Shown in pieces: positions 930 through 60,403 of a stretch of DNA of 64,000 nucleotides. Numbering within the stretch: the stretch's first letter is position 1; every line of letters begins with the position of its first letter. The position numbers were made by a program, and so were the translations under genes. A model generated the notes under the pieces. It was not told the origin of the DNA. It worked only from the letters and a program-made list of their open reading frames with translations, and ran no database searches. Source of the DNA: a virus (taxonomy: Duplodnaviria; Caudoviricetes); the IMG/VR virus record IMGVR_UViG_3300033463_000020, one strand, 5' to 3'.

Positions 930-1508
930 TTATTTCGATTTATCCGAGGCAGGGGGATCTGATGGGGTCTGTGCGACCGCCGCCAGTAATGCTGCCGCGA
1001 TCTAACGACGATACGCGGTGTCATACTAGGACACTTCCTCGGTACGTGGAGAACAAACGATTTCTCCATTGTTTTCGGCACGGTTTTGTAAAAAATAGCG
1101 CAGAATCTCTGCGGGGCTTTCATAGGGCAGATATAAAGGCTCTTCGCCCAACAATTGTCGTAAAAAACTAGCCAGCTGTGCAGAAGGATACCAAATATAT
1201 TTAATGTAATACTGCCGTAATGCGCGAGGGTGCTCCTTAATGTAACGCTACCAAGAAGGTTCTTCAAAACCAATGGTTTCCCCGGCGTCTAGGCAAGAAG
1301 CGGTATAATACGGGAAAGCATCAAAATACTAAGAACGTGCGACAGCCCGGCATGCTTCCGCATAGGTGGTAGTAAAGGTAACAGGGATCTGTTCGCCCTC
1401 TTTTTTTACCAATACCAGATAAACGCCCACCTCTTTATAAAACAAACGTTTAAAAAAGCCCAGGAATCCGACTGTAAACCAGCGTCGTATCATAATAAAT
1501 AGTTCCAT
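930..1508 (-). CDS. Hypothetical protein, 192 aa, with 4 in-frame TAG (absent from the ORF track)
   Basis: AAGGAAAATAAACATG start; open to TAA at 930-932 when TAG is read as Gln; fills the gap between neighbours. Confidence 0.7.
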
Positions 1509-1519
1509 GTTTATTTTCC

Positions 1520-2260
1520 TTATGGTTCTGTTGTGATTTTTGATACCACATTTTGGAGGGTAGCTTGTGTAAGAGGGCCGAGATTTAATACCGGGTTTTT
1601 AGAATCGTCCGCCGGCACCTGCTCGTGCATCCAGACAAAGTCATAACACACGATCGGCTATTTGGAGCCTATCACGCGCATATTTAATCCGCAATATTTG
1701 TGCAAATATCGGGTCAGGGCCTCTTGCTGAACAGGAGAACACTGGTGCAACCCCGCTAAGTAAAAGATATTCTTACGATCATACCGAACCCAATAGCTGG
1801 GGTGAAAATTCTTGCGATAGAATACAATCAACGCCAGTAGTAGGGCCTTGCCATTGGCAGACAAGTCAGGCAGGGTTGCGCAAAATTCTGTGAACTTTTG
1901 ATAGTCCTCCAAGGTCAAAGAGAGCGTGGGAGCGGCTTCGGGGGATTCCGGTACTTCAAAAACAGCGGCGTCTAACAACGTCTTTTGAAAAGCGCCTGAA
2001 ACACAGCGATCATAAGCCACCGGGGCAATAGCTGAGGCCACAGTGGCTAGCAGCCCCAGCTGATCGGCCAAATAATTTTTGATTTCCTCGATAACAGTTT
2101 TTGAGGGCTTATGCTCAGCAACCCCCTGTAAATAGAGGGTATAGATTTGCTGCGCTTCGGAACTTTTTAATTTCAGAAACTCGCACGTAGACGCAACAGC
2201 GGCCGCCTCTGCTTTGGCGCGCATATCTTGTTTATTGCGAGCATTAGGTGTGGTCGCCAT
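1520..2260 (-). CDS. Hypothetical protein (1 in-frame TAG)
   Basis: ORF 1658-2260 continues through TAG to TAA at 1520-1522, just before the next RBS. Confidence 0.7.
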
Positions 2261-5213
2261 CGTTCTCGTCTCCTTGTGATTCTAGAATTTTTAATACGCT
2301 GTCCAATAGTGTCTGATCGGGATACTCTTCGTTTTCGATCATGTCTACGGCATCTAAAACATGCGATAGCTCATCATCCGAATCTTCGCCCAAATCTTTT
2401 AATGAATATGTCAAACCCAAATACGAGTACTCGCCGTCTGCGTCCTAGACCGGGCAATATGATTTACCGCGCGGTATAAGACGTACAACTTGGTCCCCCA
2501 GAACATTCCATGCAAAACCCCAGTTAAAGGATTTGTATTCTGGCGCCAAACGGGAAACATAAAACAAGAACTCCTCACCCGACATATTGGCGTTAACCAA
2601 TTCGGACTGCAGCGTTGTCACTAACGCATCGTGAGAGGAACGATAATATCGATCGTACAGCTCGTCTGTATGTGCCCCGGGATCCGAATACAAGATATCG
2701 GTAAGGGCGTGCAAATGTGTGATTTGCTTTCGAGCATTATAAGTTTTATACATCGTCCGCACAATACTTAGGCGGTCTTTGGAGAACTGGTCTGCGAATT
2801 GGGTTTCGAAAGTCGGTAACAATGATTTCGTAGTGGACTTTGTGCTTTTACCCCGGTCAAACTTAATATCGAAATCAATGCCTTCAATAGCTTTACAGAG
2901 CTTGTTCATGGTGCAGGGGGCCGTAATTAACGGAGAATACTTTTGATACTTTCGCACCAAATCGCGTTCTTCTTCGGTCTTGTCCTGCTTGGTTAACAGT
3001 TTTTTAAATTTGATACCAAAAGTATCACGGCTTACCTGGTTATATGAGAATTCAAATTCCTTAAACCGCTGGTTCAACTCGGGATAGATGTAGCGGAAAA
3101 AGTATGGCTTTTTACGCACAACCATTGCATTGGTTCGCATTTTACGAATAATTTCGTCTTGTGAATCAGTAGGTAGAATCTTTTCCGGGGTTTTCCACTC
3201 ACGAGGCAAAGAGGGCTTGTCTGCTCCCTTGATACGGTCGATCTCCTGGCCCACAATTTCGCGGAGCAGTTTAATACGCAGCATGATCTCATTGTACTGA
3301 TCTTCGTGTCCGGGTTTGTCAAATAGGGCTGCCATGGAATACAGGATTGTGGCGGTATTTGAAAATCCCCCTACGCCAGTACCAAAACCTTTAGAAACCG
3401 TCTGAGTAATATTGGGGATGGTCATTTTAGCAGGAACCGCCAGGCCTTTTTCATAGGTAATAATATTGTGGTCTTTATGTGCGCCCTTAATAAAATACTC
3501 ATTGTCTGTTGACAAGACAATGTCCCCATCAAAATCCGCATCCTCGGCCCGGAATGTGCCGGTATCGTGCGTGGAGAAGATGATGCCACTGGTTAAATAT
3601 CTATACCAATACGCCGCCTCGTCGGAATAATGCACTGTGCACGGATTGTGTTCATGCACGTCTATCATTGGGCTACGGCACAGATCCACGGTGTGCACGT
3701 TACGCTCTGTCCAGAATCGAGACCAGATCTCATCGCGCTGTAGCAGGCCATCAGAGGGCAAACCAAGCGCGGCCTGGCATTGCGCCACCGGATCAGAAAT
3801 CATGAACTGGTAATTACCGTGTATCCACACCTTGCCAATCTTTGCATGATCAATAGTCTCGACTAAATTGGAGTATAACTTGGATTGCACGTATGAGTCG
3901 TTCAAGAAGTCAATGTTTTTTATAAGGGCCTTAGTAATCGGCGTCTGCGCACTAGAATATAGAGAGTTAAATTGCACCCCCGAGGACTTGTGCCCAAAAG
4001 TGAACAGCATAGCAGCTAGTGGGTCGCCCGAACAAATGTCTTGCAACCACGTAATTGTTGGCTGTATCAGACCGTTAATATCTTCAGTGGTTAATGACAA
4101 CGCTTGTATATACTGATAATTGGCCAGAACGCACTCGTCGTCGTGGCGTTTGTTATAGCGCGCTACACCCCAGTGTATGTTTCCGCGTTGTGCATATGAG
4201 CAATACTCAGCCCAGCTATTATAATATTTCGCGGTTTTGAACTGCGATTCAGAGAGCAGAACGTCGATATCGTCGATATTATATTCTACTCCCCATCGAT
4301 CTTTAATGGTGGAAATATTGTGGGCGTGCGCAAACTCGCGAAAATCAAAGGTTGCAAGATTGCCCTTGATGAAGCATGAGCGCGCCACAAAGGAGCATGG
4401 TGTGTAACTCAAGCACATATCTTGCGCCCAAAGTTTCGCAAACTCCGGGTCGATTAATCCCTGGCCGTCAGCACAGTTTAGTTCTAGATCCATCCGGCGC
4501 TCAGTAATAAAAGCTTTGCCCTGGTCGTCATGGGAAATAAAATCTACGGGTTCTTTGGGCAGAGTGTGGAAGAAGTCTTTGATAATACATACTCGCGGCG
4601 TGCGCACCCAAAGAATGGAAGAAAAAGCGAGGGCAAAATATGCGCTATATTTAGCTAAAACAAATTCAGATGTCTTAGTCTCGAGACCGCAATTTAAGAT
4701 ATGAACCAATGTCTCACGATAGGCCTCGTTAACAAAAGTGGCCGTATTTCTCCGAATTTGTCCGCTACCGCTGCATAGGTAAATATATCGGACGCCATTC
4801 ACCACGAAACCTGTGGTCCGAAACTTGTGAAAATCTGTTTTTTTGCCATCCACAACGACATTAATGATGTCTTTAACGAACAGCACCTCCGAGATACGCT
4901 GTTCTAGCACATGTGCTTCCCGGTATTGCCCCTGCTTCTTGTACAGACGAGCGTTGCTGCGCAATTTAGAGACGTAGCTGAAAATCTCTTTGTGATCACG
5001 ATGATCATTGTGTAGATAGCGTAGCTACTGCAGCACCAAATTATCACCGATTGATACAACCAGATCGCCGATCCGGAACTCATCGGTGCCAATGTTGACA
5101 ATGCTGTCATCCCGAAGACGGTTATATAAATTTGGCGATGATAAATTGCAGTCGTTTTTGACAATTAATGAAGCAGGTAATTTGAAAATTCGGTATAGGT
5201 TTTGTACTACCAT
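2244..5213 (-). CDS. YonO-like single-subunit two-barrel RNA polymerase, 989 aa (2 in-frame TAG)
   Basis: ADGQGLI, FIKG, SQFK, CRSP and EDADFDGD motifs typical of YonO and RdRP-like enzymes; ORFs 5025-5213 and 2445-4964 are one frame joined through TAG at 5025; extends through TAG at 2445 to TAA at 2244. Confidence 0.85.
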
Positions 5214-5245
5214 TCCGATCCTTTCTTAGGGGGCTTATGCGGTGG

Positions 5246-9737: not shown

Positions 9738-11018
9738 ATGACTACAGCTGAATTTTGGGCGTTAGTGGATAGCATTAATGTCGATGCTCGCGAGGACGGC
9801 CGTTATACTGAAGATGAGATGTATAACATCGGCAGCGCGTTCATTGAATTAGATAATTCTCAGAAACGAGAGATCGGTGGCTGGGATAAATTGGTGTCGA
9901 TCTTAAAACCGCTGGATCATAATGGCGACGTTATGACAAAAGGCGATACATTTCGGCAGTGGATCAAAAATCGGAGATATTCCAAATCAGACATTATCCA
10001 CAACGACAAAATGTTGTCCGGACAAAATATAGATGGTCTTACTTTTGCAGAATTCCAGGATAAGACCGAAGAGCTAAAACAGAACCTGTATAAACAGCAG
10101 GTTAAAACCCGGGATTCGTTGAATGCCTATCGCCGTGTTTTGCGCGAGAGTGCCAGGGTAGAGGCTTTTCGGGATCTAATGAAAGAGTGTGTGGTTGATC
10201 TGAGTCAGCTGCCGGAGGTAACTTATTCAGGGACAGTCACAGATGGACCTGTTGAGGCGGTATTAATGTTATCTGATCTGCACATCGGTGTTGAGATTGA
10301 TAATCATTATAATCGCTATAACGTACAGGTCGCACGGAAGCGCATTCGTAAAGTTGTGGAAGATGCCGTCCGTTATTGTCAACGTGAGCAGGTGTCTACA
10401 CTACATGTGTTGGGTCTCGGAGACTATATCGCCGGGAATATTCATACGAACGCTCGACTGGAGCGAGAGATGGATGTGATTCAGCAAATTATGCTGGCCT
10501 CTGAAATTATGGCGGACGCATTAAATGGTTTGCAAGCTGCAGCTCCGGACGTTCGTTATTATGCAGTAACTGATAACCACTCGCGGGCAGTCGCCAATTT
10601 ACAGGAGTCCGTAGAATCGGAGAATTACAGTAAGCTGGTCACTTTTTACCTCAAAGAGCGCTTGAGAGACACGCAGATACAATTTGTGGATAACATACTG
10701 GATCAAGAAATTGGTCTGATTGAGTTTATAAATGGCAAAACCGGAGTTTTTGTACATGGGCATCATGATTCTTTGCAGTCCATTGCTCAGAACTTATCGG
10801 CCTATGTTGGAAAATTGGTGGACTATATTTTTGTGGGCCACTATCATAACGAGAAGCTAAAAACGTTCCACGGTTGCAAGGTGTTTGTAAACGGAAGTGT
10901 TGTTGGAGTTGACCAGTATAGCTTCAGCAAACGGTTGTTTGGTAAGCCCAGTCAAAGCTTAATCGTGTTGGACGGCGATAATATTGTGACACACAGTATC
11001 AACCTCGAACACTGTTAA
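9738..11018 (+). CDS. Calcineurin-like metallophosphoesterase
   Basis: LSDLHIG, LGDYI, DNHSR, HGHH and GHYH motifs. Confidence 0.85.
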   Translation: MTTAEFWALVDSINVDAREDGRYTEDEMYNIGSAFIELDNSQKREIGGWDKLVSILKPLDHNGDVMTKGDTFRQWIKNRRYSKSDIIHNDKMLSGQNIDGLTFAEFQDKTEELKQNLYKQQVKTRDSLNAYRRVLRESARVEAFRDLMKECVVDLSQLPEVTYSGTVTDGPVEAVLMLSDLHIGVEIDNHYNRYNVQVARKRIRKVVEDAVRYCQREQVSTLHVLGLGDYIAGNIHTNARLEREMDVIQQIMLASEIMADALNGLQAAAPDVRYYAVTDNHSRAVANLQESVESENYSKLVTFYLKERLRDTQIQFVDNILDQEIGLIEFINGKTGVFVHGHHDSLQSIAQNLSAYVGKLVDYIFVGHYHNEKLKTFHGCKVFVNGSVVGVDQYSFSKRLFGKPSQSLIVLDGDNIVTHSINLEHC

Positions 11019-11047
11019 ATTTTGACGACGGCCGTAAAGGAGAGAAC

Positions 11048-12130
11048 ATGGAGGAACAAGAGTACAAAAGTGCCGACGATACGGTCGTCGATAATGATAA
11101 TATTAGCAGCCCTGTTGAACCGGGGCTGCTTTCGTATTCGGATATTAAAGCTGAGTGCGCTGGGTCAGATGACGAGGCAATGTTTAAATATTGCTTTTTG
11201 CACAATATTGTCTACGATCACCTGCTGGCTCGGCGGGCGCTAATTGCAGCCGGAGAAGGAGAAGAGGTAAGCGACCCCGTTGAAATTTACCAAAAGCTAA
11301 TTAACGAGGACGACGCTCTGCGGGGACATGATTTTTTCTCTTAGCTGCAGCGGGAGAATTTTGAGCAAATTTATTCTGAGCGCCGTGCGCTTGGTGAGCT
11401 AGACGAAGATACGGCCAAGAATCGTATGGCGGTCATGGAAATTTTAGCCTACGATCCCTTTAAGGACGATGATATTGAGGATAAGCCATAGCTATATCGT
11501 GACATGACAGGCATGCTCACAGAAGGTATGCGCAAAGACGTTGCCAAAGCCAAGGCGGCATTGGCGATTGTGCGTAGTTATAATAACCTTGACAAGTATC
11601 AGAGAAAGATTAACGAAATCATGAAAGCCGGGCAAATGGACGACGAGACACAGAAGGCTCTAGATCAGTTAATTAAGGTGTCAAAGACTTTACAGGATTC
11701 TATCAACCAGACTGCCGAAAAGAATAATTTTACGGTAAAAGGGATTGGAACCTCGGGCCACGGCATGCTTTCGGACGTTATGAATCGGGTCAATGACTAC
11801 GGGATCGATGAAGGCATTGTGAATTTTTACGATATTGCGACATCTAGGGCCATCGAAGAGGTGGCCAATATTAGCTTTAAGGCACAGTTAAATCAGGTGG
11901 GCTTGTCGAAGACTGATTATGCTGATATTCTTAGCCAGCAATCTAAAATAGTGCGTGAGGCGTAGATGAAAGCGCGTGAGGCGATCGAGGCCCTGCGTTT
12001 GGCCAAAGAGAAAATAAAAAAGCAAAAATTGTTAGATGAGCTGGCTCGTGATTACAGAAAGAAGGGCATCTCAGAAAAAGAGATCGAGGCCTTTATTGAT
12101 CGTGAGTATCATCTGTATAATCCGGAGTAA
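11048..12130 (+). CDS. Hypothetical protein upstream of terminase (possible small subunit), 3 in-frame TAG
   Basis: ORFs 11048-11344 and 11504-11965 share a frame and read to TAA at 12128-12130, 2 nt before the terminase ATG. Confidence 0.7.
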
Positions 12131-12132
12131 TC

Positions 12133-14058
12133 ATGATTAGCGTATATAAAAACAAGATATCGAACAATGTCACATCCAAAGACTATGCTGCGATGTCTAA
12201 ATATATTTAGCTTATTCAGTGGGGGCGTCGCAACCCCGTGGGTTTTATTGAAAAAATTTTTGGCATCACCTTAATGGACTATCAACGATGGTTGATCTCT
12301 GAATCCTGGACTAAAGAATATGTCGTTTGGGCGTGTTCTCGAAACGCCGGCAAATCTTTTTTGGTTGGCATTTTTGTCCAAGCCCGGAGTTTACTATTCC
12401 CTAAGTTGTAGACATAGATTATTTCAGAGAACTGGCAAACGTCTAACGATACTTTCAAAAAAATGGAAGATATCGCGACGAATAATATCAAGACAATTGT
12501 TGAGACCAACACCGTCTTTATTGACGAACTTAAGAAAACCAAAAGCGATTCCGATGGTTTTACGCATGATTTTAAGACGGGGAACCATTGTGAACTTTTG
12601 AATGGGTCTAAAATCAATGCAATTGCCGGCGCATCGCGATCTGCGCGTGGACGCCGATCTAATGTTAACGTTTATGATGAGGCCGGGTTTATTTCGGCAC
12701 AAACATTCGATATATCTGAACCTTATATGTCCCAGGACGCTTCGTTTAAGCTGGGTAGCAATTTTGACTCCGAGGTATATCCTCCCGATATTCCCAATAT
12801 TCGTCTTTATATTGGCTCTGCTTCAGATACGAGTTCGTATTTCTACGGTAAATATCGCGAGGGTACAAAATAGATGTTGGCGGGCAATAATCGGTATTTT
12901 GTGGCGGATATTAGCTGTGAGATACCCAAAGCGCCAACAGTTAATGGTATCCCGGTGACGCCATTATTATCCCAGGTAGAAATTGATCGTAAAATGCGTG
13001 AAAACGAGATTGCGGCCAACAGGGAATATTACAATATCTTTGATAGCTTTAACTTGGAAGATTGCGTGGTTTCGCGATCTGATATATTTTCTAATACCGA
13101 AGTTTTTGTGCCGGCTACAATTTGGGGCGGCACTAAACATAAATATCTGATATCTTATGACCCCGCCAGTAAGGTGGATAACGCCCCGGTATTGGTCATG
13201 GATATCTTTCTCAATGACGAGTCGCGCGTCTGTGGGCGTTGTGCACACATGGAAAACCTGGTCGTCACCTACGGAGACGGCTCCAAGCGTCCCATGCGTA
13301 TCGATGAACAAGTTGGTCGTTTGCGTGAAATGTTATGGGAATATAATGGGCGCGATTCGGCGGTTCCATATGATAACGTCACCATTCTGTTGGATGCCGG
13401 ATCTGGTGGACAGGCTTCGAGTATTTGCCAAGAGTTGGCGAAAGACTGGACTGATAAACAAGGGCGGACGCATCCTGGTATTTTTGATGAAAATAATGAA
13501 TATAGTGTGCGTTGGGCAGAATCCTATCCGCACGCTATTAAGGGCGCACTGAAGATGGTAGAGCCGCGTAAATATCGCAACGCGTTATTTGAGGCAGCAA
13601 AACTGTTAGTGCCCCAGGGGGCCATAAAATTTCCTCCGGCATGTCCTAAGCATGACGTGTTGGTTTTTGATGACGGTAGTGAGCGCAAACTCTCGAAGGC
13701 AGAACAGGCGTCACTTATTCAAATGGACCTCATGAAAGAAGAGATTGTGGCTATGGTACGCAGTAAGTCGCCGACCACGGGGGCGATAACATATTAGTTG
13801 CCTCCCGAAAAGCGCAATAAAATGCACGATGACCGCAATTATTGTTTCGTGTTATGTTGTTGGGAAATTAAGAATCTGCGCGATGCAGCAGAGTTCGGGG
13901 ATGGGGCCGTCCTAGATTATGGGGTTTTCTTTGGCGCACATCCTGATACGCACAATGGTGCAAATGATGCTTGGACTAATGCGATGCGTGCACGCCCTCA
14001 GCGTTCAACAGTGCGCATGAGTCCTTTTTAGGGGCACTCTCCCTTTAGATCGAAGTAA
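12133..14058 (+). CDS. terL: Terminase large subunit (6 in-frame TAG)
   Basis: Walker A SRNAGKS, ARGRR, Walker B VYDEAG, nuclease motifs SYDPAS, LLDAGSGG and HDDR; one frame from ATG 12133 to TAA 14058. Confidence 0.9.
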
Positions 14059-14072
14059 AAGGAAGTATAGTT

Positions 14073-14489
14073 ATGATATGCTGTAAAATTGTAGCGGATT
14101 TTAATGATCCGCGGGGTAAATTTAGCGCCTTGCTGCAAGGCCTGAGCAAAATGGGCGATTTTTTATTTGAAAATGGCACGTTGTTTTTTGCTAATGTGGA
14201 TGATCCAAAGGTTGCTGAAGCGAGAATTAAGTCATTAATTGCACGGGCAGGATATCATAACTTCGTAGTATTTACTTACGATAAAGATTATTAGCCGCGC
14301 GAAAATGAGTATATAAATGGCTGGTTAACCGATAAACTGGTCGCTATTAATTATCATTGCTACGAGCAGCAAAGTCAAGCGGTATTTCACCGGGTGGCAC
14401 ATGGGCTTGATTTATTAGATAAAGAGTTAGAGGCATTTCAAAACACAATGCTGGCTAACAGTAACGAGGAGGCCGAGAAAACACAGTGA
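14073..14489 (+). CDS. Hypothetical protein (1 in-frame TAG)
   Basis: Reads through TAG at 14292 to a TGA that overlaps the portal GTG (GTGA coupling). Confidence 0.7.
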
Positions 14490-16327: not shown

Positions 16328-16349
16328 CGCATGGGGGTAAAGCAAAGTT

Positions 16350-16850: not shown

Positions 16851-16871
16851 CGTGGGTATAGGGGGATAATT

Positions 16872-18849: not shown

Positions 18850-18981
18850 TTGTATTTATTATGTGTGAGTGTTAATGTGCCCACGAGTTCTTGGTTGGTA
18901 CGCCGAAGCCGATCAGGCATCAGTAGCGCATGTTAATATACATATTTAAATATCACTCTAATTTTAAAAGGAGACATTGAT

Positions 18982-45400: not shown

Positions 45401-48400
45401 CCCAGGTTATTAGTGCTGGTATTACTTACGGCCTCGGTCAAATTGCTTCGGGCTTAAGTGCTTATGGCAGCGCTGGGGCTACGCATACTTTTACGAATGC
45501 CGCCGGCGAAAGTCGTGACGTCAACTCTTCTTAGCGCGCACGTCAGGCTGGACGCGGGATCGCAGCGGTTTTAGCCGTAGCCTTACCCGCCGTTGGCGCT
45601 ATTCTTGGCAATATCGTGGGCGATGAAGTTAGCCGTCGGATTGATGCGGCACGCGATGCAGCCGACGAGCGTACGCGGGTGGCATAGGAAAATTTGCACG
45701 TATTAACCAGCGCACAAACCAACTTGGAAACTATGATCCGACTACGAAATGCGGCTCTCGTCTCAGAAGAAAAAGAGCGCGATCAAGCCATTGCTGAGTA
45801 TATCGCGACTATGTATGCTTCGGATAATGTTGCGGTACGGGAAATCTTAGAGAAGTATTTAAAACAGATTTACGGAGAGACCAAAACTATTAGGCAAGTA
45901 ACCGAAGCGATGCATTCGGGTGATGAAAAGGAGCGCGCTTAGGCCGCACACGCCCTAGAATTGGCCCAGGCATAGGCCGAGCACGCTCAAACGCGTCGAG
46001 CTCGAGCGTCTGAGGACTATGCGGAAGCCGAAAGATTGCGTGAGGCTATGCTGGCATATAATGCGTCACGTCCGGGGTATACGGCCAGCGGCATTAGCAA
46101 CCGGACTAATGGTCTGAATATAGGACATAGTGCTGGCGTTGGGGCAACGGCAGGTGGTCTTGTCATGGGCGGTGAGGTCGCCGCTATGCTGGCGGCGGCT
46201 GGCGCAGTAAGTGCCATTCCTGTGTGGGGGTGGATTATAGCAGCGGCATTAGCAGCTACAGCCGGTGTGGGCGCGGGTGTAGCCGCTTATAAGTCGAGAT
46301 CGGCCAGAAGCGAGATTGAGGAAGGGCAAAACTGGTCCTGGGAAGAGCAGTGGGACGACCTGAAGCTGGACGAGAAGATTTCGCGGTTATTAGCGGCTGA
46401 AGAGGCCCAAAAAGACGCAGTCGAACGTAACGCACGGGGTGCCACTGAACAACTTGAGGCTACGCGTGCCCTCCGAGAAGCCTACGAGGATTATCGCGAG
46501 TATTTACGCGCATAGTATGAGGAAGATAACAAAGCTAAAATGGATGAGGCTTTGATTTATGCTGGTTGGTAGTCTAACGGCTCTTTTAATACTGATTCGA
46601 GCGATATTAACGCCACAGAGTACTTCTTGAAGGATTTGAACGTCGTATAGGCAAAAAATTACGGGCAAAAGGCGTTGTATGACGCGCTGGCTGAAGCGCT
46701 GGGCGAAGGTGCGCTTGAGGGCATTAATATTAAAAATGCCGAGGGTGAATATACTGAGTATTTTGTAAATTATGCACGGCATATTATGTCCGAGAATGAG
46801 GACGTAGAGTCTGTTCTCAGCGGCGAAGCGTATACCTTGAATGAGGCGCTTGACAAGCTAGGCTCAAACACTGATCAATTTAGTCGGGCGACGATGCAAG
46901 ATTTCGCACGTGCAATGCGTGTTGCACGCAAAGAACTGGGGGACTATAGTGAGCTGGTGGGCGAATTAACTTTGGCTGAATTGATGATGACGACCACAGA
47001 GCTCGAAGAAGAGTTCGACAGCTTATACGGAGTACTGGGGAAGGTATCGGACGGCACGCAGTCTGTAACCAAGTGGATGACAGACATTGTGGCTCACTAC
47101 CCCGATTTAATTAATTACATGAGTAGCACTCCGGCGCTCATTACCGCAATCGTGAACAAGCTCTATGACTTAAACAATCAAACCATGCGTCAACAATATG
47201 AAGAATATGGTGAAAGTACATCGTTCTGGGCAAAGACGATGCGCCCGGGCGCTGAAGGTTGGCTGGCTGAACAGGAGAAGCAGGGGAACATTACCTCAGC
47301 AGAACACGAAGCGGTGCTTAAACTGATCCAGGATAAGCGAATTACTAAGCTGAACGAGGCGGTGCAGAGATTGGCCGTGGTGCCATCTTTGGCTGAAGAT
47401 AGCCCGTTGCGGCGTACCTACGAGCTCATGGAACGGGCTATAGAGGCGGGCACTAACGGAGTTATCCTACGCTCGGATATTTGGACTGAACAGACCCAAA
47501 AGCTGACCAATTTTATTGCCGAACAACTTAAAGCTCAAGTGGCTGCGCTAGAGGCTCAAAAACAGGCGTTGCAGGATGTTAACAAACAGCGACAATTTGA
47601 GGTTGAGCTTCTAAATGCACGCAATAAACTTGCAGACGCAATGAATCAAAAGCAGCGCGTCTATCGTACCGGCGTAGGTTTTGTATATGAGCCTGATCAG
47701 GGGGCTATCAAAAAGGCGAAAGAAGAACTGTAGGAAGTCTAGTTACAGAAAGACGTGTCGAAAATTACTAAGCAAATCGACATCTTGCAGGAGGAAGCGA
47801 GTTAGTGGGAGACCCTGTGGAGCACGCGTACCAAGGAGCTCTAGGAGGCAGTTATTGAGGAAATTTGGGGCAAGAATTACACGAATTTTAAAACCGCGTT
47901 ATTTGGAGATTCTGCGCAGCAGACCTTGAATGTTGGTGAGCATGGCGTTAAGGTGGACGCCGCGAGTCTTCATGAGTAGCTTGATACTATTTTTGGTACG
48001 AGTAAAGGTGCGTTTAGCACTAGTATACAGACTGCTGTTTTTGGATCTACTGAGACGTTGGCTACTTGGTGGCAAAAAACAGGCGCGACATCGGTCGAGT
48101 CATTGTTTGGTTATTTACAGGCCATTATAGATAATCAGAACAAAGAGACGAACCCCCAGGTTTTAGAGTTACAGTAGGCGTTCAAAACCTATAACAAGTT
48201 AGCTTCAGCTCGGGGTAACGGTGTATCGGTTGACGCCAATGAGTGGAACTCGGCATTACAGGATTATAAGACCAAATTTACTGCCGCAGTAAATGCGGGG
48301 CTCATAGATGAGAATTGGGCATTCAATTAGAATTATAATCTCACCAGCCAAAGTCACGCCCCGGGCAGCCGATATGAATATACTTATAATCCCTGGGATC

Positions 48401-49311
48401 TTGGAAACCATGTTGATAAGCTTCTGATGACCCCCAGCGCAGTGGAGGCTGTGTCGACCGTTGGCGAGATATTCCGACAGGGCGTGGTTCAGGCGCGTGC
48501 AGGATATGCGTGGCCTTAGGGGGAGAACCCTTACAATTCCGCAGTTCAAGTTACGGGATATGTGCCCATTGAGCCCACCTCAACGTTTGCCACTGGTTTG
48601 AATCGCGTTAAGAACGAGTTTAAGTGGGGTGATGGTGAGGGGAAAGAGCGCGCCTGGTTCTGGACCCCGGGTCTGCTTAAGAGCGGGGGGGCCGAGTTTT
48701 CTGAAGGCACCTCGAGCGACCTAATGACAGCATTTACATCGGCTAATAACTGGTCTGATGTTGCGCGCAACTTAGCTGACGAAGATGAGTTTTTAATTTG
48801 GACCCAAGATGGCGGTTATATCTTATTATCCGGCGGTCACGCATACAAAGCGAACACAGCGACATTGTATGAGGTAGGTAAGACGTTGGCGCAATAGGGA
48901 TTGAGCGGATAGGAGCCCTCTCTCGGACATACGACCAGAGGAAGCCACGCGGCTGGAAGCCTCGGATTGGCTCAAACTGGTACGAGGTTAATTAATGAGT
49001 TTGGCACTGAAGCGATTATTACCCCTTCTGGCACCATTACTGCGCTACCTTCGCATACTGGGATTATTCCTGCCGATATTACGCGGAATCTTTGGCAGTT
49101 GGGTGAAGTAGCGCCTAGTATTTTGCGCGTCGCCGAAACCATTGCACCCGATAGCATTCTCCGCAGCAGCACCCAGTCTGCTATAACAGATCAATCGTTT
49201 AATATCAATAATTTGTCGATGAGTGTCAATGCCGACGATAGTTTTGACGTAGATGCCTTCATTGAAGCGATTAAATCCCGCGTTGCCTTGACGCATCACG
49301 CTCACCGATAA
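36443..49311 (+). CDS. Giant tape measure protein (~3,860 aa after splicing) fused to an N-terminal two-barrel RNA polymerase and a PD-(D/E)XK nuclease; exons 36443-43308 and 44595-49311; about 50 in-frame TAG
   Basis: All fragments share a frame within each exon with no TAA/TGA; TP901-type motifs (EWQR[Q]GY, GQALKTIISR, FAGVRQ); C-terminal INEFGTEAII; RNAP motifs GEK...KG, RYP and NLDFDGD. Confidence 0.85.
43309..44594 (+). mobile_element. Group I intron, 1,286 nt
   Basis: P1 exon AAGCGCU with IGS GGCGCUU and a U-G pair at the splice site; terminal G at 44594; P10, P3, P7 and P8 pairings; removal restores the frame and GQAL/KTIISR. Confidence 0.9.
43434..44453 (+). CDS. Intron-encoded homing endonuclease: zinc-finger repeats plus Vsr/DUF559-like (EDxHD-type) nuclease, 5 in-frame TAG
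   Basis: AAGGAGG RBS and TTG; four CxxC...(F/Y)CxxxC units; NEY...LDIY...IEVMGTYWH...DKRK...LWEQD. Confidence 0.8.
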
Positions 49312-49515: not shown

Positions 49516-52500
49516 ATGGCGGTTTATAAACCCACTTTGTGCTATCCATTTTCCAATGGTCTAGACATTCGCACGGGTGTCCAGAAAATTAGCGAGACGG
49601 GTGCGCTCGTAGATCCAGCGCAATGCTTGACGTGCCGTATTGAAACGTCCAATGTTGCAATTACAGGATATTCAGTAGCATTGTTTTCGACGGCTCACGA
49701 ACAAATTTTTCCCAAAGTTTTTGAAGATGCGACCAATAAGATACCGTATGTGAGTCCAATTTCGGAATTGCAGTATGCGTCTTTGGGTTATGACGCACAG
49801 AATCCCACGGGGGTTAACTCGGGTGTTAATGGTGCAACATTGCGTATTCCTTTTTTCCGTGCTACACGTGCAGACACTGACTATCCGAGATCATTAAACG
49901 CCATATATTATCAAGCTGATTATGTTGTGGCACATTTAATTTTAGACGAAACCGCTGCAGAGGAGGCGCCTAGTGATTACCGAGCCACACGAGACCCCAG
50001 TGTATATACTAATGTCGATGAGGCCGAGTACTGGAAACAAACGACGCGTACGGGGGGTACGTATTTAATTCATACGACTACCACCGATCCCACCGATGTC
50101 ACACATATTTCCAATGCCAGTTATGTTGCAAATGGTGGCGCTTTAATATGTGATGGCGAACCCTTAATTGTGGGTGATTTAGTAGGGGTGATTTTGGGTA
50201 CTGAACCCCAAAGTGGTGCACCTATCTAGATGACCAAGGGTGGTATATATGAGGTTGCCACAATTCCTGCGGCAGACGACGATAGTCGTATGATTTTCGC
50301 GCTAAAATTGCGTAATACGTTAGCGCTAAAAAGCCGTTTAGTGGTTTGGCAAGGTGCGTCTTTGCATAATACCATGTGGGAGGTTACTACTGATGGTTTG
50401 GGGTAGCGTGGCGCATTGGACGATGCTTTGTGGTGCGATACCTACGGTAACCCCGTAGAGTTGGACGCGCGGGGGACGCATTATCAATGGGAGATTACGC
50501 TCTACCAAGGCACTACCGCGATTGGCGAGTCGCTACCCATTTTACCCGCCGATACTGTAATGCGCACTCGTTATGGTGGCTGGGTAGATTATACAACTAT
50601 TGGCCCTCAATGGTTTGATAATATTGTAACTGGTGGACAAATTATGGGGTCGACGCCAGAACGGCTGTAGTTGGCCGATGCCAGTGAGCAATATTTACCG
50701 GCGGGTACCGATTCGGATCCCCTGGTGTTACAAGATACATTTTGTGCTATATTCCCGTTGCCCGCAGGGTCGGCAACAGATTATACATCCTGGTCGAGTA
50801 TTAGTCGCTTTCCTGTGCATGATTACGATGCACGTTATGGGCATGTATATCCTTATGCCAAAACTTTGTTAGGCCTGAGTCCGCCCAGCGCAGAATAGTG
50901 GTGTGCTTTTTATGAACACTCAACAAATCCGCAGGAAATCTTAGACACAGATATTGTGGATTATGCATATGCTACGGAACTAGCCTTAAGTTTCTGGCAC
51001 GTAACCGATGGCGCTTGGCACCAAGATTCGATATCTGCAAATGACTATAACGCTGTCGATCTTTGGAAGGGCGTGTCCGTGACCGAACGGTATCTGGTCG
51101 TGGGATCGGACGGTAGTTATAATCCCAATCCTACAGGTAGTGGCGGTCAAATTTTGTTAACTGCGCAATCCAGACGGTGGCAAAATGGCGTGTGGCAAAT
51201 TAAAACGATGGAAGCAGCTTGGGGGAATAGCACAAGTAAAAAATATTATTTAACTCGTGCAGCTAAGTATGAAACCTGGGGCGATTTCATTGGCCGCATC
51301 GTCTATGCCCCACAGCCGTCCAGTATGAACTGGACTAGCCTAGCAGCAGCCGGGGCCGCCAATTTGTGGAATTACCAAGATGTCGATATGCAATATGGTC
51401 GTGGGGATTTAGTATTTTCACCTGAGCGACCTATTCTATTGTTCCGAGAAAAATTATGGCACGTAAATAATTTTACTGGCGTGGTCCGTAGTGTGGATCT
51501 ATATAGCGCTTACTCGGCGGGGTCAGGTTTTACCCCGCAAGATAGCGACGGTGCCCGTTAGAACGCATGGCAAATTGGCGATTATGTGGCGGATCGCACG
51601 GGTACGATCTATTATGTTGCGGGCTGTACGCGCAATCACACGTAGTTTACTTTGGAGCGGGTCGGTAACGCCGCAAATTATGCCTTTATTTATGTCGTCA
51701 ATTTTGCGCGAACGTCTACGGGAATTCTTTATGATGCCGGGGGCACCGTTTATACCTGGGTTCCGGCGACGAATTCAGAGCCCGCGAGCTGGCAACAAAC
51801 ATGGGAGTTACATCGTGCTAAAATTTTAAAGAATAATACGACGTATACTTATGTCTCTCCTTGGGTTAAGGGTGTGGTGGATGCACGTATGAGCATGAAA
51901 TTGCTTAGTCCGGGTGTTGCGGTGGTCGCAAACTCGAACGTCACCACTGATATTATTCGTATTCGTGGCCTGAATGACGTGGTCTATCGTTTAGATCACG
52001 ATGCATTGGATGAGCCCATGGAAGCATATGGCGCGAGCAACCCCTTTATTCCCTATCGTTACAACATCTGTAGTTATTTCCGCACATCGGAGCCGAATCC
52101 CTTTATTGCATATGAGCGTCCGTATTTACGGCTATTCTTAGAGCAAGAATTGTTGACTAATTTATCGATGGTTGCGCCTAGTGTGCCTACTGCTGTAGAA
52201 ACCAGCCATCCTTTAGCGGTGGAGTGGTTGGAGCACATTACCACATATGTGGCAAGAAAACTCAACTTAGGTGTTGAATACCAGCAATTTAACCACACGA
52301 TGTGGGAAAGTTACTAGTGGAAATTATATTCGGGTGATGGTACGACCCTATTGCAAGACACCGGACGGTGCTACGATGGACTAATTTAGACAACATTTTA
52401 TGGTTTGGCCAACGAGCTGAGTGCAAATGTTCCCTATTGGGCTTCTGTGATTGTGGAGAACAGTGTCGGCGATGTTTTGGAATATCGCTTACGTTTTGAA

Positions 52501-55500
52501 ATTGCTGCGGGTTCGCAATCTTCTTTTGTGGATGATGGCGGCGGAGAACGGTGCTGGTTTACCGCTGCTTATGATTGCAATACATAGTCGAATTTAATTA
52601 CATTCTAGTGGGCCGATCCCGATTAGCCTACTCCGGTATCCCCGAAGTATTCGGTTTACCGTCGAGAATATGAGGTATATGAACAACCCGGGGAGCGTTT
52701 TGAGGGATATCGTCAAAGTGATACCGTGTTCACTCGTGATGCCGCCGGCACCATTCCTCTGCCGCGTATTGACTAGGCGTTGTATGAAGATTTAACTATT
52801 GTGGGGACTAAACCTGCGCACGTATTTTATGTTTTCCGCGGGAACCTTGGCCGTTTTGTATAGTCGGCATCGACATATCGTGAATTTAAGGGGGCCTGGG
52901 AGCCCGTGGTAGCGGTACGACAAGCGCCTGCAAACGCTTATATCGATCTATTCAGAGATTTTAATATTTCTAATGGTCGTTCGTATCAGTATATCATTTA
53001 CCCGGCCATTGATGAATGGGGCACCCCAGAAACTGTTGAGCAAACCTTTGCAAACTACTCTGGATTAATTTGGGAACCGCTATCAGTCAATGCCGGTGCA
53101 TTAACAGACGGTACTTTGGAAACCTCCCCGTATAACGGCGGTGCTGTGGTTACAGTGGGCGATTGCTGGAGTTTGGTTGAATTAGTGCCTGAAAAATCTG
53201 ATATTAATGCTCCGATTATTAATTAGCGTTATCGTGTAGATAATGATAATATTTGGTTATTTAGATATGATGTTGAAACCGGAGAGCAGACTCAAAATTT
53301 GGCACGCAATGAATTTGCCAACCTGGGACGTTATCCCAAATTTGGTTTTGGTCGTACAAATTATGCATCTGGGGCGGTATCGGCACAATTGGGCAGTGAA
53401 TTGGTATGCTCATCTAAATATAAATATATTGAACGTTTATCGCATTCGCGGCTGGCCCCTCTTTCTACCAATGAAAAAGCAGAGATGCTGAAACAATGGT
53501 AGGCCTTTATGTATTCACGCAATCCTAAATTATTGCGAGATATTAAGGGGCAAAGTTGGATTGTGCAAGTCTTAGCGTCATCGAATCGTACTAAGAATTA
53601 TTATCCGGAAACGCCGGACACGATTTCCTTCCAATGGAAAGAAGTGGGATCACCGCGTAACGTTATTATTTATGGAGACTATAATGCAGACAATGCTGAA
53701 ATTAGTAAAACCATAGGCAAGGCCGCGTGGAGTAGGGTATTCGCAGGTTTGGGCGGTGCTAATGCAGCAGTGCCCGAAGTGCCTTATCGTATAACATGGA
53801 GTGATGCGATGTGGTCGTTCGATACACTTAACACTGGGACAGAAGCGCGTATTAAATTGGGGGCACCGCCTACGGCTATAGATGACTATACATATGCCAT
53901 TAGTGGGGCCGCTGTTAATGGTGTCGGTAAAATAGGGACCGTTACCGATCATAGTGGTGCTGCTATCACGTTACCCGCGACTTTTGACAGTAGTGCCCTG
54001 TATTTCTGGGTTTTGAATGCCAACGCTCCTTTGCGACTATATTTCCCGGTGGAGACTGTGGTCACTGCAGATTATACTAATCCTTATGTCTTAATTCCTA
54101 CGGGAGACACAGAATTAGTCGTTGGAGCCAATCATACTGCATATGATCTTTTGGTGGTCACTAACAATGCAATGGCCGCAGAGTCGAATCCGGCCTATGT
54201 TGTTGCGGGCAATGGCGCGGCTGCCATTACACGCTTGGATTTCATATTCCCTGCGGATTATAGTGCCCCTCCGAGTACTGTTGTGAATACTGACTATGTC
54301 AAGGTAGACATATAGGGTACATCGGGTAGTGTAACATTTTCTTGGGTACGCGATGATGCGTCACATGGGCATGTGTTATTATCTGGGGTTACTGCACCAT
54401 TGAAAGTTGCCATTTCTGGTATGTTGCGCCTGGCAGCGCCCACCCTAAGTCGTAGTGCGCCCACCAGTACCGTATTAGTTTGGACCAGTATACCGAACGC
54501 TACCGCGTACGAGGTATACTTGGACGGCACATTGGTGACTACTACAAGTGCGCAAACATATGATTATGCTGACTATACTGGTACACCCACAGCTGGCTAG
54601 CATTTCTGGACAGTCTGTGCGGAGACAACGACGGGGGCATTTTCGAAAGAAACCTCCCCAGTTATCGCACAGTGGTATACGATCGTTAGCCAGTGTGCAC
54701 GTTGCGAAGTCCGTCCGGGCTCAGATAGTGGTACTTGGGATTATACGTCGGCTACAATCTATTATGTGTTTGACACTAGCACGAATTTGGCTTGTCCATG
54801 GCAAGTTCCCATGAGTAATGGTTAGCCCGGGGTCTGGTAGTGGACGTATTATAACTCGAGTTCGGGCAGCTTGTATATCTTGGGCGAAGATATGGCGGGT
54901 CTTGCAGCAGATGGTGTCATTACGCAAAATACTTTATATATTAATGTGGGCGCAGTACCTAGGATCACTGCCCCGGTAATTTCATAGCGCGGCACGGTGA
55001 TTTACTGGAGCACGAGAGCCGAAGTAGAGAAATATCGTGTGTATGCCGATTACGGGACGGACGTGTTCACTGTTGATCTCCCCAGGCCCGCCAGTGGTGG
55101 TAGGTGCCAGTATGATCTCTCCGATTATTTGACTCAAGCTACGACTTATGATATTTCTGTGGTGGCGTTTGGTACCAAGGGTCGTTTTTATGGCACCAGT
55201 CTACCTAGCAATGTTATTACGGTCACACAAGAAGCGATATATGCTACCACCGAGAACGGTGCTACGGCCGAGGCGTCGAATCCTGATATGATATGGCATG
55301 GAACCTCTGTTGTGTTGAAATATTGGTTTGACGGCGTGAATTATATCTGTCCAACTACTGCGCCAACTGTTACGGGTGCGACAGGCAGCTGGACAAAAAT
55401 TAGCGACCTGTATGGTGAACTAACTATTTCGTCGCCTACTGGTTCGGTAGTATTCACTATTTCTGGCGTACCTGGCGTAAGTACTAGTTATACAACCGTC

Positions 55501-56733
55501 TGGGATACGGTGATCGAAGCAAGTGGTACTGCGGGTACGCCGCCCGCGGCCTGGGATGTCACTGAGTCAAGCTTGGCGTATTCATTTATTAGCAATAGCA
55601 TTGCTTATACTGGTATTTATATCGACGAATATGGGTGTATGTATTATACGGCGAATAATATAAATACGCTTGTTTTTGATACGGTAGGTGCCGTGGGGCC
55701 CACTGGCTGGCAGGATGAGGGTTATCGCACCATTGTGTCTACCGTAGATCCCGACACAGTATTCTTGCAAGACTGGGCGGTTTTCTACGATAAAAATACC
55801 GACGGTGTGATTCCCACCCCCTTGTTCCCCGTGCAATGGAACTTTGTCATGGAAACCGAGAGTCCTACAGATGTTGCGAACTATTGGACGGTCCTCGGTT
55901 CCTATGTTAATGTTGGGTTCTACAGCAATGGCACGTCCTATACACGGTTCTCCGTTGACAGCGATGGTAGCATTTATTATGGTACGACGTCTAGTAACAC
56001 ACTTGTATATGACTATATTGCTGGTTGGGTACTGCCTGCATACCGGACAATAGCATGTGAAACGAACCCTGAACTATCTTTTGTTGGCAGTGATTGGAGC
56101 GGTTTCTATCGCGCTAATACTGTCCAAACCTAGTGGAGGAGCAGTCTAGACACTGGTTTAGAAGTTGATGGCGGCTCTATTTGGGGCGTTAGAGACGAGA
56201 CATTGTCGATTACTTTTGTATCTAATAGCACGACATACTCGTCTATTTATATTGATACTGAGGGCAGCATGTATTATGGTGGCACCATGGTATATGAGTA
56301 TCAGACCGGCTGGGTGAACGACGAGTATCGCATCATTACGACGGCGCAGCCCGCTACAACCGCATTCAATCACGGCGACTGGCTCACTTTTTATTATGCG
56401 AATACCGGCGCAGTGACGTATTGGCGCAGCAGATTGGAACCTTCAGGAGAGGATATGTCATATGAGGTGCTGAATCGGACCCTGTATTGTGCATTTATGT
56501 GCAATGGTACGATGTATGCATCGCTGTCTTTTGATAATGCGGGTAATTTTTATTACAACACGGCCCGGTAGTTTGGTGGAGGTACCAAAGTTTACGACAA
56601 CAATAGTGGCTGGGTACAGGGCGCCTATCGCTTGATCGCCACCGCTAGCAGCGGTAGCGAAGTCTTTGGCTTTGATGACCAAGACTGGTCAGATTTTTAC
56701 GACGCGAATGCTAACATTACAGATGAAGATTAA
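49516..56733 (+). CDS. Large tail/baseplate/receptor-binding protein, 2,405 aa (more than 20 in-frame TAG), with Fn3-like segments and four C-terminal repeats
   Basis: Twelve ORF fragments in one frame joined only by TAG; AGGAGG RBS; ends at TAA 56733. Confidence 0.8.
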
Positions 56734-56755: not shown

Positions 56756-58015
56756 ATGAGTACAACGACTCACTATGTTAATCTTAGTAGCGGCGACACC
56801 TTGGCGTTCACGATTAATGACGAGGACGCTTTGGGTTATTATGCGAATGCCGGAACGGATATTGCGTGGTTGCAAAATGCTATCTCGGATAATACCGTTC
56901 AGGCTATTTTTCGGATTTATGTTTTATATCCCGACGAAACTATTGCTTATGAGATCCCCCGCGATCGCATTAAGTCTGGCGGTAGCTATAATGAAAATTA
57001 TCAAAATGGCTAGCGGCGCACCTTGTCATTTACGTTGTACAACGAGGATGGACAGTACACCCCCAATGTTAATCAATTTTGGGTGGGTACGAAATTGCGT
57101 TTAGATATGGGGCTGTTATTGCCTTCGGGTAATAGCGTGTGGTTCCAAAAAGGCATTTTTGTGATTACCACCGCAGCCCCTTCTAAGGTCCCCGGGGCGC
57201 ACGAGGTGAATATCTCTGCGGCAGATAAATATTGTTTGTTTGAGCAGGGGCGAGGAGTTTTAGGAAGTACATATGTTGTTCCGGTGAACACCGATATCTA
57301 TGGTCTTATTTCGTCGATCTTATTTACCGACGGCGGGAACGGATATCTACTAGATTCAACACCGTTTTTGTTTAACCGTGCGCTGGAAACGAAAAAGACC
57401 TAGGCTGAAATTACCAAAAGCGCCGGCGATAATTTGGGCAGTATCTTGTCAGATATTGCCCTGCAAATTAATGCTGAGGTTTTTTATAATTCTACAGGCC
57501 AATTGGTTTTTGCTCCGATCCCCGAAGTCACTGCTGATATTAATAAGCCCATTTTATACCATTATGAGACGCCCAAGGGTGACCTGAGTTAGCTGGACTT
57601 TAACTTGGATTACGCTAATATTGTAAACCGAGTGGTGGTCATTGGCACGTCGTCGTCTGGAGGAACCTTTAGCTATGTGGTCGCTAATGACGATGCAACG
57701 TCGCCATTATGTTGGCAACGGATAGGTTTCCGTACCGGCGAGGTGATTACGGATACTAATATTTATTCGATGTAGCTAGCCAAAGAACGCGCCGAGTATG
57801 AGTTGAGATAGCGCTTAATTTTAACCAGTTCCGTAAATCTCACGATTATGTGCAACCCGTTTTTGTCGGTGAATAATTTAATTACGATTTCTGATGAGTT
57901 TTATGGTTTAAATCGTGAAAAATTCTTAATTCAGTCTGTGGGATGTGCGTTGGATTTCTCGAACCAGATGCAAATTAGCGTAACAAATATTCGGAACCTA
58001 CCATTTTTAACTTGA
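56756..58015 (+). CDS. Putative baseplate hub/tail protein (5 in-frame TAG)
   Basis: [Q]RRTLSFTL, GIFVI, FYNSTGQLVF, IVNRVVVIG and RAEYEL motifs; 419 aa. Confidence 0.7.
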
Positions 58016-59357: not shown

Positions 59358-59367
59358 GGGGCATAAT

Positions 59368-59772
59368 ATGACCGCCGATAAAAACGAGAACACGCCGTCG
59401 CTGGTCGACTTTGATTAGTTGGCCTGCTAGTTGATGGCAGTGCCGGGATCTCCCAAAGAGCTAGTAGCTTCGCCGGAGTTTTCGGAGCGGTATATAGAGC
59501 TTACCAATGCTTTAGCTTCTTTACAGGAACTAAAGAAAAACGTGGACGGCATGATTAAGGACGTGCTTCGTGAATAGTACTATGAAAATGGTGAAAATAG
59601 CATTGTCACGCCAGAGTGTCGTTATACCTATGTGCCTGTTGGCACGCGGGAAACGTTCGACTCCAAGGCGCTAAAGATTGCCGATCCCGAAACATATTGT
59701 CGTTATGTAAAAGTTGCGCAGGTGAGCGATTCTATACGTATTACTAAAAATCGTACTGATGGCACCCAGTAA
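59368..59772 (+). CDS. Hypothetical protein (3 in-frame TAG; absent from the ORF track)
   Basis: Open to TAA at 59772; TRETFDSKALK..DPETY motif seen in recombination-module proteins. Confidence 0.7.
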
Positions 59773-59773
59773 C

Positions 59774-60403
59774 ATGAAGTCCTGGGAGCGGCATGAACTA
59801 CCCAACGGTGAGCTGGTCATGTTTAATGCAGACGAGCATGCGTATATCGTACGTGACTAGGTAGTGCCCAGCGTCACAACGCTATTATAGACGGTTTATG
59901 GCAATCCATATACCGGCGTGAATCCGGAAACTCTGGACCGCGCAGCGAGATATGGCACTGCGGTACATAGCGAGCTAGAATCGTTGGTAAGCTATCGACA
60001 GGAGTGGGGGGAGGCCCCCACTCCGGAGATGATGCATTTTTAGGAAGTATAGAATTATTTTACCTATATTGAACCTATTTATTAGATAGTGCCGCAGCTC
60101 TTAGAGCGCGTGGTGGTGTTATATGATGCTGCTTAGCGCCCGGTCTCGGCCGGGCGTTTTGATATGCTGTGCACAGTAGCGGGGAAACCCTGTTTGGCCG
60201 ATTTTAAGACTACGTCGGCGATCCATCGCCCCCAAGTTACTGCATAGCTAAACTTATATCGGCGTGCTGCCGAGCAGTCGGGTTATTTGACCCAGGTTGG
60301 TTCGGTGTCGCTGGGGGTGATACACTTGCATGGCGAAACCAGTCGCTTTTTCCCTATCCCTATTTTGGGCGAGAATTTTCTAGAGCGATTTATCCCCAGT
60401 TGA
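59774..60403 (+). CDS. PD-(D/E)XK (Cas4/RecB-like) exonuclease (7 in-frame TAG; absent from the ORF track)
   Basis: PSVTTLL, GTAVH, AGRFD, ADFKT and A[Q]LNLY motifs. Confidence 0.85.

Follow-up and report, generated by a model that had tools for sequence, protein, structure and literature searches.

Why do so many genes of a single phage, among them the most conserved ones, carry the triplet TAG within their reading frames? The question is raised by IMGVR_UViG_3300033463_000020, an IMG/VR record of a virus of the Caudoviricetes, from which a stretch of 64,000 nucleotides (the window, bases 40030-104029 of the single 149,604-bp record) was analyzed; positions are those of the window unless the genome is named. 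The record has direct terminal repeats (IMG/VR class), a CheckV completeness of 100% and a GC content of 47-48%, and near-identical DNA occurs in 10 studies of animal gut metagenomes whose labels are mostly bovine. An initial annotation, made from the sequence alone, had proposed that TAG is reassigned to glutamine (Gln) between 930 and 60403. The best explanation, to which a probability of about 0.94 is given, is that the record is the complete 149.6-kb genome of a cattle-gut phage with an SPbeta-like capsid and RNA polymerase (RNAP), in which TAG is a codon for Gln and not a stop (genetic code 15).

How would the genes be organized if TAG were not a stop? Gene models were built by greedy choice of the longest non-overlapping open reading frames (ORFs), a heuristic and not a gene caller, and over 930-60403 they gave the following:

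Table 11 (standard code): 94 ORFs, coverage 0.79, 23 strand switches
TAG as sense: 49 ORFs, coverage 0.96, 11 strand switches, longest ORF 2406 aa
Control with TGA as sense: 92 ORFs, coverage 0.815, 27 strand switches
Control with TAA as sense: 87 ORFs, coverage 0.876, 36 strand switches

The rise to 0.96 is thus obtained only with TAG as sense, the controls staying at 0.82-0.88, and over the whole genome coverage climbs from 0.80 (table 11) to 0.94 when TAG is sense, compared with 0.84 and 0.87 for the TGA and TAA controls. These figures agree with the tight packing on read-through described in the initial annotation; the breaking of conserved genes by in-frame TAG, also described there, is seen in profile searches. 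Matches continue across TAGs in the anaerobic ribonucleotide reductase NrdD, NrdG, the integrase, the large terminase (TerL), the portal, the tape measure, a tail protein, a PD-(D/E)XK nuclease and a YonO/RdRP-like RNAP; the NRDD profile (PF13597) covers residues 95-671 and crosses two TAGs, and the TerL match to phrog_2 covers residues 23-465 and crosses four. Annotation under table 11 would fragment half of the phage's genes (94 ORFs vs 49), and the terminase, the portal, the tape measure of about 3860 aa, NrdD and two very large ORFs would be cut or missed.

Has TAG also ceased to terminate? Genome-wide, 316 in-frame TAGs are spread over about 100 genes and the same genes contain no in-frame TAA or TGA, while all 158 modelled genes end in TAA (100) or TGA (58). 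The earlier statements that TAA and TGA never interrupt a gene, and that no gene needs TAG as its stop, follow in part from the way in which the ORFs were constructed; independent support comes from the genes of at least 100 aa in 930-60403, where no TAG lies nearer than 9 codons to the gene end. The end-most TAGs that are covered by related loci (TerL 633/641, portal 580/613 and the gene at 22081-22425, 94/114) align within the homologues. Along the genes TAGs are evenly distributed, with 27 to 40 per decile, and therefore do not represent read-through of terminal stops. Among the TAG-free genes of at least 100 aa none of 46 ends in TAG, compared with 15-33% of the long ORFs of standard-code relatives; TAG has therefore been lost as a terminator even where the suppressor is not needed. 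TGA ends 37% of the genes here and nearly none in the standard-code relatives.

Which amino acid does TAG encode? One indication comes from two virion paralogues that are 57% identical, where both alignable TAGs stand opposite a CAG for Gln in a strongly conserved context: TAG 27183 faces CAG 25557 (EGAPI-Q-FSFYH) and TAG 27975 faces CAG 26046 (EIPRF-Q-LNGAQ). This alignment had been the central argument for Gln from the outset, together with TAGs at conserved Gln positions of a nuclease and of the tape measure, and the six coordinates then quoted are all exact. Homologues confirm both positions, with Gln in 89 of 90 at nuclease TAG 60245 (TA*LNLY, the Q of QxxxY) and in 146 of 150 cluster representatives at tape-measure TAG 42977 (WQR*GYE). 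In NrdD, Gln is found opposite TAG 32787 in 117 of 119 homologues and opposite TAG 33519 in 119 of 119, and in the RNAP the TAG at residue 63 is matched by CAA or CAG in 7 relatives. Conserved homologue columns opposite TAG are 97-100% Gln, and variable ones are mixed (K, Q, E, R, S), in the manner of surface Gln positions.

A broader comparison used 48 related IMG/VR loci, in which the codons opposite each window codon were counted in well-aligned context only. The 278 sense cells opposite TAG comprise 151 Gln, 27 K, 23 S and 18 R, with no Trp. When the substitution profiles of the true amino acids serve as models for these counts, the log-likelihood is -545 for Gln and -964 for Arg, the next best, a lead of about 418 units. 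With one vote per position, Gln is the majority at 18 of 41 TAG positions; true Gln codons reach 52% by this count, and those of K, E, R, S, N, H, W, Y and L 0-4%. All 61 sense codons are read as in table 11, and the random residues that would have spoken against recoding were not seen at TAG positions, Gln being far ahead of any other. Together, the features of code 15 are present: only TAG occurs in frame within conserved genes, homology continues past it, TAG aligns with Gln, the phage has a tRNA with anticodon CUA (tRNA-CUA), TAA and TGA stay stops and TAG terminates no modelled gene. As judged from sequence comparison, TAG is a sense codon for Gln, with TAA and TGA as the sole terminators.

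How could TAG be decoded? The absence of a CUA tRNA from the window, noted in the initial annotation, holds, and a search for any tRNA in the 64 kb found none. The nine tRNA genes of the genome lie at genome 119.6-123.3 kb, and one of them is a tRNA-CUA (genome 119879-119953), 15.8 kb past the window end and 81 nt upstream of a tRNA-Gln(UUG). Of other decoding genes, neither RF1 or RF2 (RF-1 and PCRF domains) nor GlnRS (tRNA-synt_1c, class Ic) was found anywhere in the genome. The acceptor end of the tRNA-CUA has an unpaired U1/C72, G2-C71, G3-C70 and G73, and the anticodon contributes U35. In Escherichia coli, a U1/C72 mismatch, G2-C71, G3-C70 and G73 (with U35) fit Gln identity for GlnRS, and such an acceptor end would suit charging by GlnRS. 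The CUA tRNAs of two TAG-recoded relatives (G001 and G006) share U1/C72; they are about 60% identical to the tRNA-CUA described here and show no affinity to tRNA-Trp.

The body of the tRNA-CUA has a different affinity. In a comparison with 36 reference tRNAs (background 0.58 +/- 0.04), the two closest are tRNA-Trp, at 0.72 for E. coli trpT and 0.67 for that of a Firmicutes metagenome-assembled genome (MAG), with tRNA-Gln at 0.63-0.64. Both the anticodon arm and the T arm are Trp-like; in the former (CGGTCTC-T-AAAACCG), every base except the middle one of the anticodon is shared with E. coli trpT. Descent from tRNA-Trp is a lead that the modest identity margin (0.72/0.67 vs 0.63-0.64) may offer. 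A blastn search of the tRNA-CUA, a very short query, against E. coli genomes gave no match. The 81-nt spacer 3' of the gene, inspected by eye for a theta ribozyme, does not resemble an HDV-type fold, and the Rfam search of the tRNA region returned only tRNAs and a drum RNA (RF02958), which lies inside the tRNA array at genome 121911-122029 with 46 bits against a gathering score of 43. Two odd tRNA predictions occur in the same array, a class II tRNA with anticodon ACU ("Ser") at genome 121136-121226 and a 97-nt tRNA-Arg(UCG) with a long insert at genome 121767-121863.

A comparable tRNA is known. The E. coli amber suppressor Su7 is a tRNA-Trp with a CUA anticodon that is charged with Gln. The phage tRNA resembles Su7 in its Trp-like body, in an anticodon arm that equals that of trpT except for the middle base, and in that TAG is nevertheless read as Gln; it differs in also having a Gln-like acceptor end, and in that its charging with Gln is a prediction. 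A speculative proposal, with the odds against it, is that the tRNA-CUA is a natural Su7, with a tRNA-Trp-derived body and a GlnRS-type acceptor end that insert Gln and never Trp, and that late transcription and late translation would both await this tRNA. Transcription would do so because the YonO-like RNAP itself carries TAGs.

Could TAG instead mean tryptophan, as in a code-32-like system, or a mixture of Gln and Trp? The two tRNA-Trp at the head of the tRNA comparison would favor this, and a Trp isotype is predicted for 19% of phage amber suppressors (Kienbeck et al., PMC10879173). The protein alignments point elsewhere: not one of the 278 sense cells that TAG faces is Trp, even though these alignments conserve true Trp positions at 90%, and the near-invariant columns opposite TAG are all Gln. 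Furthermore, the anticodon CCA, which is the main determinant for TrpRS, has been lost in the tRNA-CUA. Tryptophan is thus a very improbable reading. If the Su7-like proposal were true, about one fifth of the phage amber suppressors, those now called "Trp", would belong to ordinary code-15 phages and not to TAG=Trp codes.

Where in the genome is TAG used as a Gln codon? The annotated features of the window, in window coordinates, are:

930-60403, no strand: region with TAG as Gln; 49 genes, 32 of them with 156 in-frame TAGs, ends all TAA or TGA
2244-5213, minus strand: YonO/RdRP-like single-subunit RNAP, 989 aa (PF05183, E 9e-9; phrog_8308, E 7e-90; ADFDGD), 2 TAGs
9738-11018, plus strand: SbcD-like exonuclease (phrog_284, E 5e-59), TAG-free
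12133-14058, plus strand: large terminase (phrog_2), 6 TAGs
14486-16327, plus strand: portal protein, 4 TAGs; the TAG at residue 349 faces CAA or CAG in 13 related loci
19540-20625, plus strand: YonB-like (SPbeta-type) capsid protein (phrog_4088; atlas feature match 0.98 to YonB clusters), TAG-free
25395-26459, plus strand: virion paralogue, TAG-free, with CAG 25557 and CAG 26046 opposite TAGs of 26736-28394
26736-28394, plus strand: virion structural paralogue, 3 TAGs, of which 27183 and 27975 align to Gln
30221-31261, plus strand: tyrosine recombinase/integrase (PF00589, phrog_1), 6 TAGs
32133-34175, plus strand: NrdD, TAGs at 32142, 32787 and 33519; the first lies upstream of the homologue start and is therefore probably 5' of the true start
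34176-34682, plus strand: NrdG-like activase (PF13353), 1 TAG
34633-35796, plus strand: amidase endolysin (PF01510, phrog_15001), TAG-free
36443-43308, plus strand: tape measure, proposed exon 1; ORF to TAA at 43375, 30 TAGs (PF10145, phrog_4211)
43309-44594, plus strand: proposed group I intron, 1286 nt, with an HNH endonuclease ORF at 43350-44453, 5 TAGs
44595-49311, plus strand: tape measure, proposed exon 2; 23 TAGs in the ORF from 44647
49516-56733, plus strand: ORF of 2405 aa with no assigned function, 22 TAGs
56756-58015, plus strand: tail protein (phrog_1887, E 8e-36), 5 TAGs
59759-60403, plus strand: PD-(D/E)XK exonuclease, 7 TAGs; TAG 60245 is the Q of QxxxY
60466-63435, plus strand: Erf-like annealing protein, a small ORF and DnaB helicase, all TAG-free; start of a replication block that reaches DnaE beyond the window

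TAG accounts for 17% of Gln-type codons overall, for 4-5% in the replication blocks (genome 10.3-29.5 kb and 100.4-112.4 kb) and for 20-28% in the structural blocks. The gene for DnaE (1312 aa) has 63 Gln codons and no TAG (P = 7e-6), and the long replication genes in general avoid it, with P from 7e-6 to 3e-3. The replication blocks, which include Erf and DnaB in the window, also hold a primase zinc-finger protein, PcfJ-like, AAA and VWA proteins and RecD2 (1 TAG). Besides replication genes, the SbcD-like exonuclease, the YonB-like capsid gene, one virion paralogue and the amidase endolysin are TAG-free in the window; TAG-bearing are the terminase, portal, tape measure and tail genes, together with the YonO-like RNAP, NrdD and NrdG, the integrase and two nucleases. 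In the TAG-poor replication blocks CAG makes up 0.72-0.74 of CAG plus CAA; in the main TAG-rich structural blocks its share drops to 0.42-0.47, and smaller TAG-bearing blocks lie between, at 0.54-0.67. The lower share in TAG-rich blocks is as expected if TAG arose mostly from CAG.

This distribution fits the published model of standard-code early genes followed by suppressor-dependent genes, and is at odds with a narrower view, in which recoding is aimed chiefly at lysis genes. In the proposed mechanism, the TAG-free replication, capsid and endolysin genes would be translatable in an unmodified standard-code cell. A host enzyme, either GlnRS or the GluRS/GatCAB route, would charge the tRNA-CUA with Gln, and the charged tRNA would out-compete host RF1. 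TAG-bearing genes would be made full-length only once the tRNA is present, which would constitute a translational timing switch.

Is the code perhaps that of the host, the phage simply matching a cell that already reads TAG as sense? In favor of this, the phage has no release-factor gene with which to change termination. However, the avoidance of TAG in the long replication genes makes sense only for a standard-code cell, and the phage brings its own tRNA-CUA. The relatives argue in the same direction, since sister phages with a TerL 64-77% identical use TAG=Gln, TGA=Trp or the standard code. A host that shares the phage's code is accordingly given very little chance.

The related records (nine were examined; near-complete relatives measure 131-155 kb) show how closely code and tRNA go together. 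The TAG-recoded ones in which the region is present (G001 and G006) carry a tRNA-CUA, the TGA-recoded ones (G003 and G008) carry a tRNA-UCA, and the four standard-code relatives have neither. In G003 and G008, in-frame TGA stands opposite TGG 20 and 4 times, respectively; the same family therefore holds TGA=Trp lineages too. The tRNA-UCA genes of G003 (locus L009; 131 kb with terminal repeats, terminase 71% identical) and G008 (loci L059/L060; 145 kb) are 95-100 nt long, and about 21 nt are inserted in their variable region. Sister lineages that each have the matching suppressor tRNA, or none, offer a convenient natural series in which to study the capture of a stop codon.

Alternatively, the TAGs might be errors or signs of decay, either C-to-T artefacts of assembly or sequencing, as considered from the start, or amber mutations accumulated by a dead prophage or by a genome undergoing pseudogenisation. 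TAG and CAG are one C-to-T change apart. Three contigs of cattle or gut metagenomes, each from a different other study, cover 11004-20999 at about 97-98% identity, and all have CAG in place of TAG 12208 (terminase residue 26). This is a direct TAG/CAG polymorphism between strains; of the six TAGs compared within 11004-12513, the other five are kept in all three independent contigs. Related TAG-recoded contigs also have TAG at the same sites (31 cells). Moreover, decay would hardly give 316 in-frame TAGs and no in-frame TAA or TGA in the same genes, in a genome that is complete with terminal repeats, holds the matching tRNA-CUA and recurs in the 10 animal-gut studies, so error or decay is exceedingly improbable. 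Pyrrolysine, suggested by nothing but ARAGORN's "tRNA-Pyl(cta)", a label derived from the anticodon only, can be set aside as having a negligible chance, because TAG stands opposite conserved Gln, TAG, CAG and CAA interchange freely among relatives, and 316 TAGs over about 100 genes are not the pyrrolysine pattern of few genes and non-Gln positions (pyl genes were not searched for directly).

Several observations weigh against the reading of TAG as Gln under a timed suppressor. The timing switch fits imperfectly: the endolysin and capsid genes are TAG-free, and NrdD and NrdG, the integrase, the nucleases and the RNAP have TAGs. A few genes outside 930-60403 (genome 10749-11360, 137320-138132 and 144180-145076; window 224-796) have a TAG in their last 1-10 codons and could still terminate there early in infection. 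The residue at TAG positions is deduced from alignments. Many TAGs fall in variable columns, where K, S, R, N and D are as common as Q, although true Gln codons behave alike, and the cells counted from related loci are not independent, which the count of one vote per position corrects in part only. The tRNA-CUA has a body more like tRNA-Trp than tRNA-Gln.

What separates the two parts of the tape-measure gene? Uninterrupted homologues measure 3900-4600 aa, and the spliced product here would be about 3860 aa. A continuous homologue sequence, SSAGQAL followed by KTIISRYGNVKAG, is split between 43308 and 44595, and homology to uninterrupted tape measures resumes at 44587; the downstream ORF has its first start codon 60 nt later. 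The proposed joint, GCGCU / ...G / UAAAACA, would give an in-frame QAL-KTIISRY as in those homologues. The features expected of group I splice sites are present: a U that pairs with G in P1 is the last base of the proposed 5' exon, G is the last base of the insert, and joining the exons would keep the frame. A 7-bp P1 can be drawn from the sequence between AAGCGCU and a GGCGCUU 11 nt downstream, including the U-G wobble, and the non-coding 3' tail of the insert is structured (z = -3.4). Rfam gave no match, either over the whole window at gathering scores or over 43100-44900 at E up to 1, and a P3-P9 core was not found; the intron is therefore without covariance-model support. Taken together, the splice-site features suggest that the insert is a putative group I intron with an HNH gene.

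The initial annotation had also spoken of two RNA polymerases. The YonO-like enzyme at 2244-5213 is supported by PF05183 and phrog_8308. The second, placed in the N-terminal part of the tape measure, reduces to a motif: NLDFDGD, the metal-binding motif of two-barrel RNA polymerases, occurs at residue 1307 of the ORF (~40361), and Pfam, PHROGs and a PDB phmmer search with the first 1520 aa gave no support for a polymerase there. Contigs from RNA libraries overlap 11667-11902, 16354-16680, 19579-19905 and 20445-20604, where carry-over of DNA is possible.

To which phages and which host does the genome point? In the GenBank phage collection, a TerL search found only distant Bacillus and Microcystis phages, the nearest cultured ones being Bacillus siphoviruses with 28% identity, and the phage is therefore without a cultured relative. 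The YonO-like RNAP (PF05183, ADFDGD) and the YonB-like capsid would indicate that the phage is distantly related to SPbeta-type Bacillus phages and that its host is one of the Firmicutes. Probably, on weak evidence, the host belongs to the Firmicutes and not to the Bacteroidetes. A search of GTDB genomes with NrdD returned one 4-kb contig of an "uncultured Firmicutes" MAG, a match that does not settle the host. The closest named homologue (P0121) of the nuclease at 59759-60403 is filed at NCBI under a Methanobrevibacter MAG, in a 145-kb contig that is probably a misbinned phage contig from the family of the present phage.

How does this phage compare with known recoded phages? TAG-to-Gln recoding has been reported in crAss-like phages (PMC7886860), where code 15 is described as proven by metaproteomics (PMC9523058), and TAG-to-Gln recoding with phage suppressor tRNAs is known from crAss-like phages, Lak phages and six further gut clades (bioRxiv 10.1101/2021.08.26.457843). 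The initial comparison with crAss-like and Lak phages stands for the mechanism of recoding, as all read TAG as Gln, have their own tRNA-CUA and concentrate recoding in late genes. It does not stand for kinship. The phage described here differs in its tape measure of about 3860 aa, its YonB-like capsid, its YonO-like RNAP and its probably Firmicutes host. Crassvirales have a podovirus-type module, crAss-type hallmark genes and no tape measure, and membership was rejected on the PF10145/phrog_4211 tape measure, the YonB-like capsid and a terminase nearest to Bacillus siphoviruses. Phassvirus (phAss-1) of the human gut has a genome of ~136 kb, TAG in many hallmark ORFs and three suppressor tRNAs (PMC10607447). 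It is thus similar in size, in its TAG-bearing hallmark ORFs and in having suppressor tRNA genes; it differs in the number of the latter, one here compared with three, and shows no close relationship in the terminase search of GenBank phages.

The closest parallel is the Agate clade of Borges et al. (bioRxiv 10.1101/2021.08.26.457843, later Nat Microbiol 2022), whose genomes of 154 +/- 27 kb come from cattle, pig and tortoise samples. Close relatives within it use code 11, 15 or 4, the recoded modules are scattered along the genome, and the replication genes keep the standard code. Two differences are apparent: there is no RF2 gene here, compared with two TAG-recoded Agate genomes that have one, and the endolysin is TAG-free here, compared with TGA-recoded Agate phages in which lysis genes are the most recoded (bioRxiv 10.1101/2021.08.26.457843). 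On every feature compared, namely a genome of 150 kb, the cattle gut, codes 11/15/4 among relatives, the matching suppressor tRNA and standard-code replication genes, the phage and its relatives match Agate, beside which they are set by published description and not by a terminase tree. The recoding described here is correct and useful for annotation; it is not new in kind, the same pattern having already been described by Borges et al.

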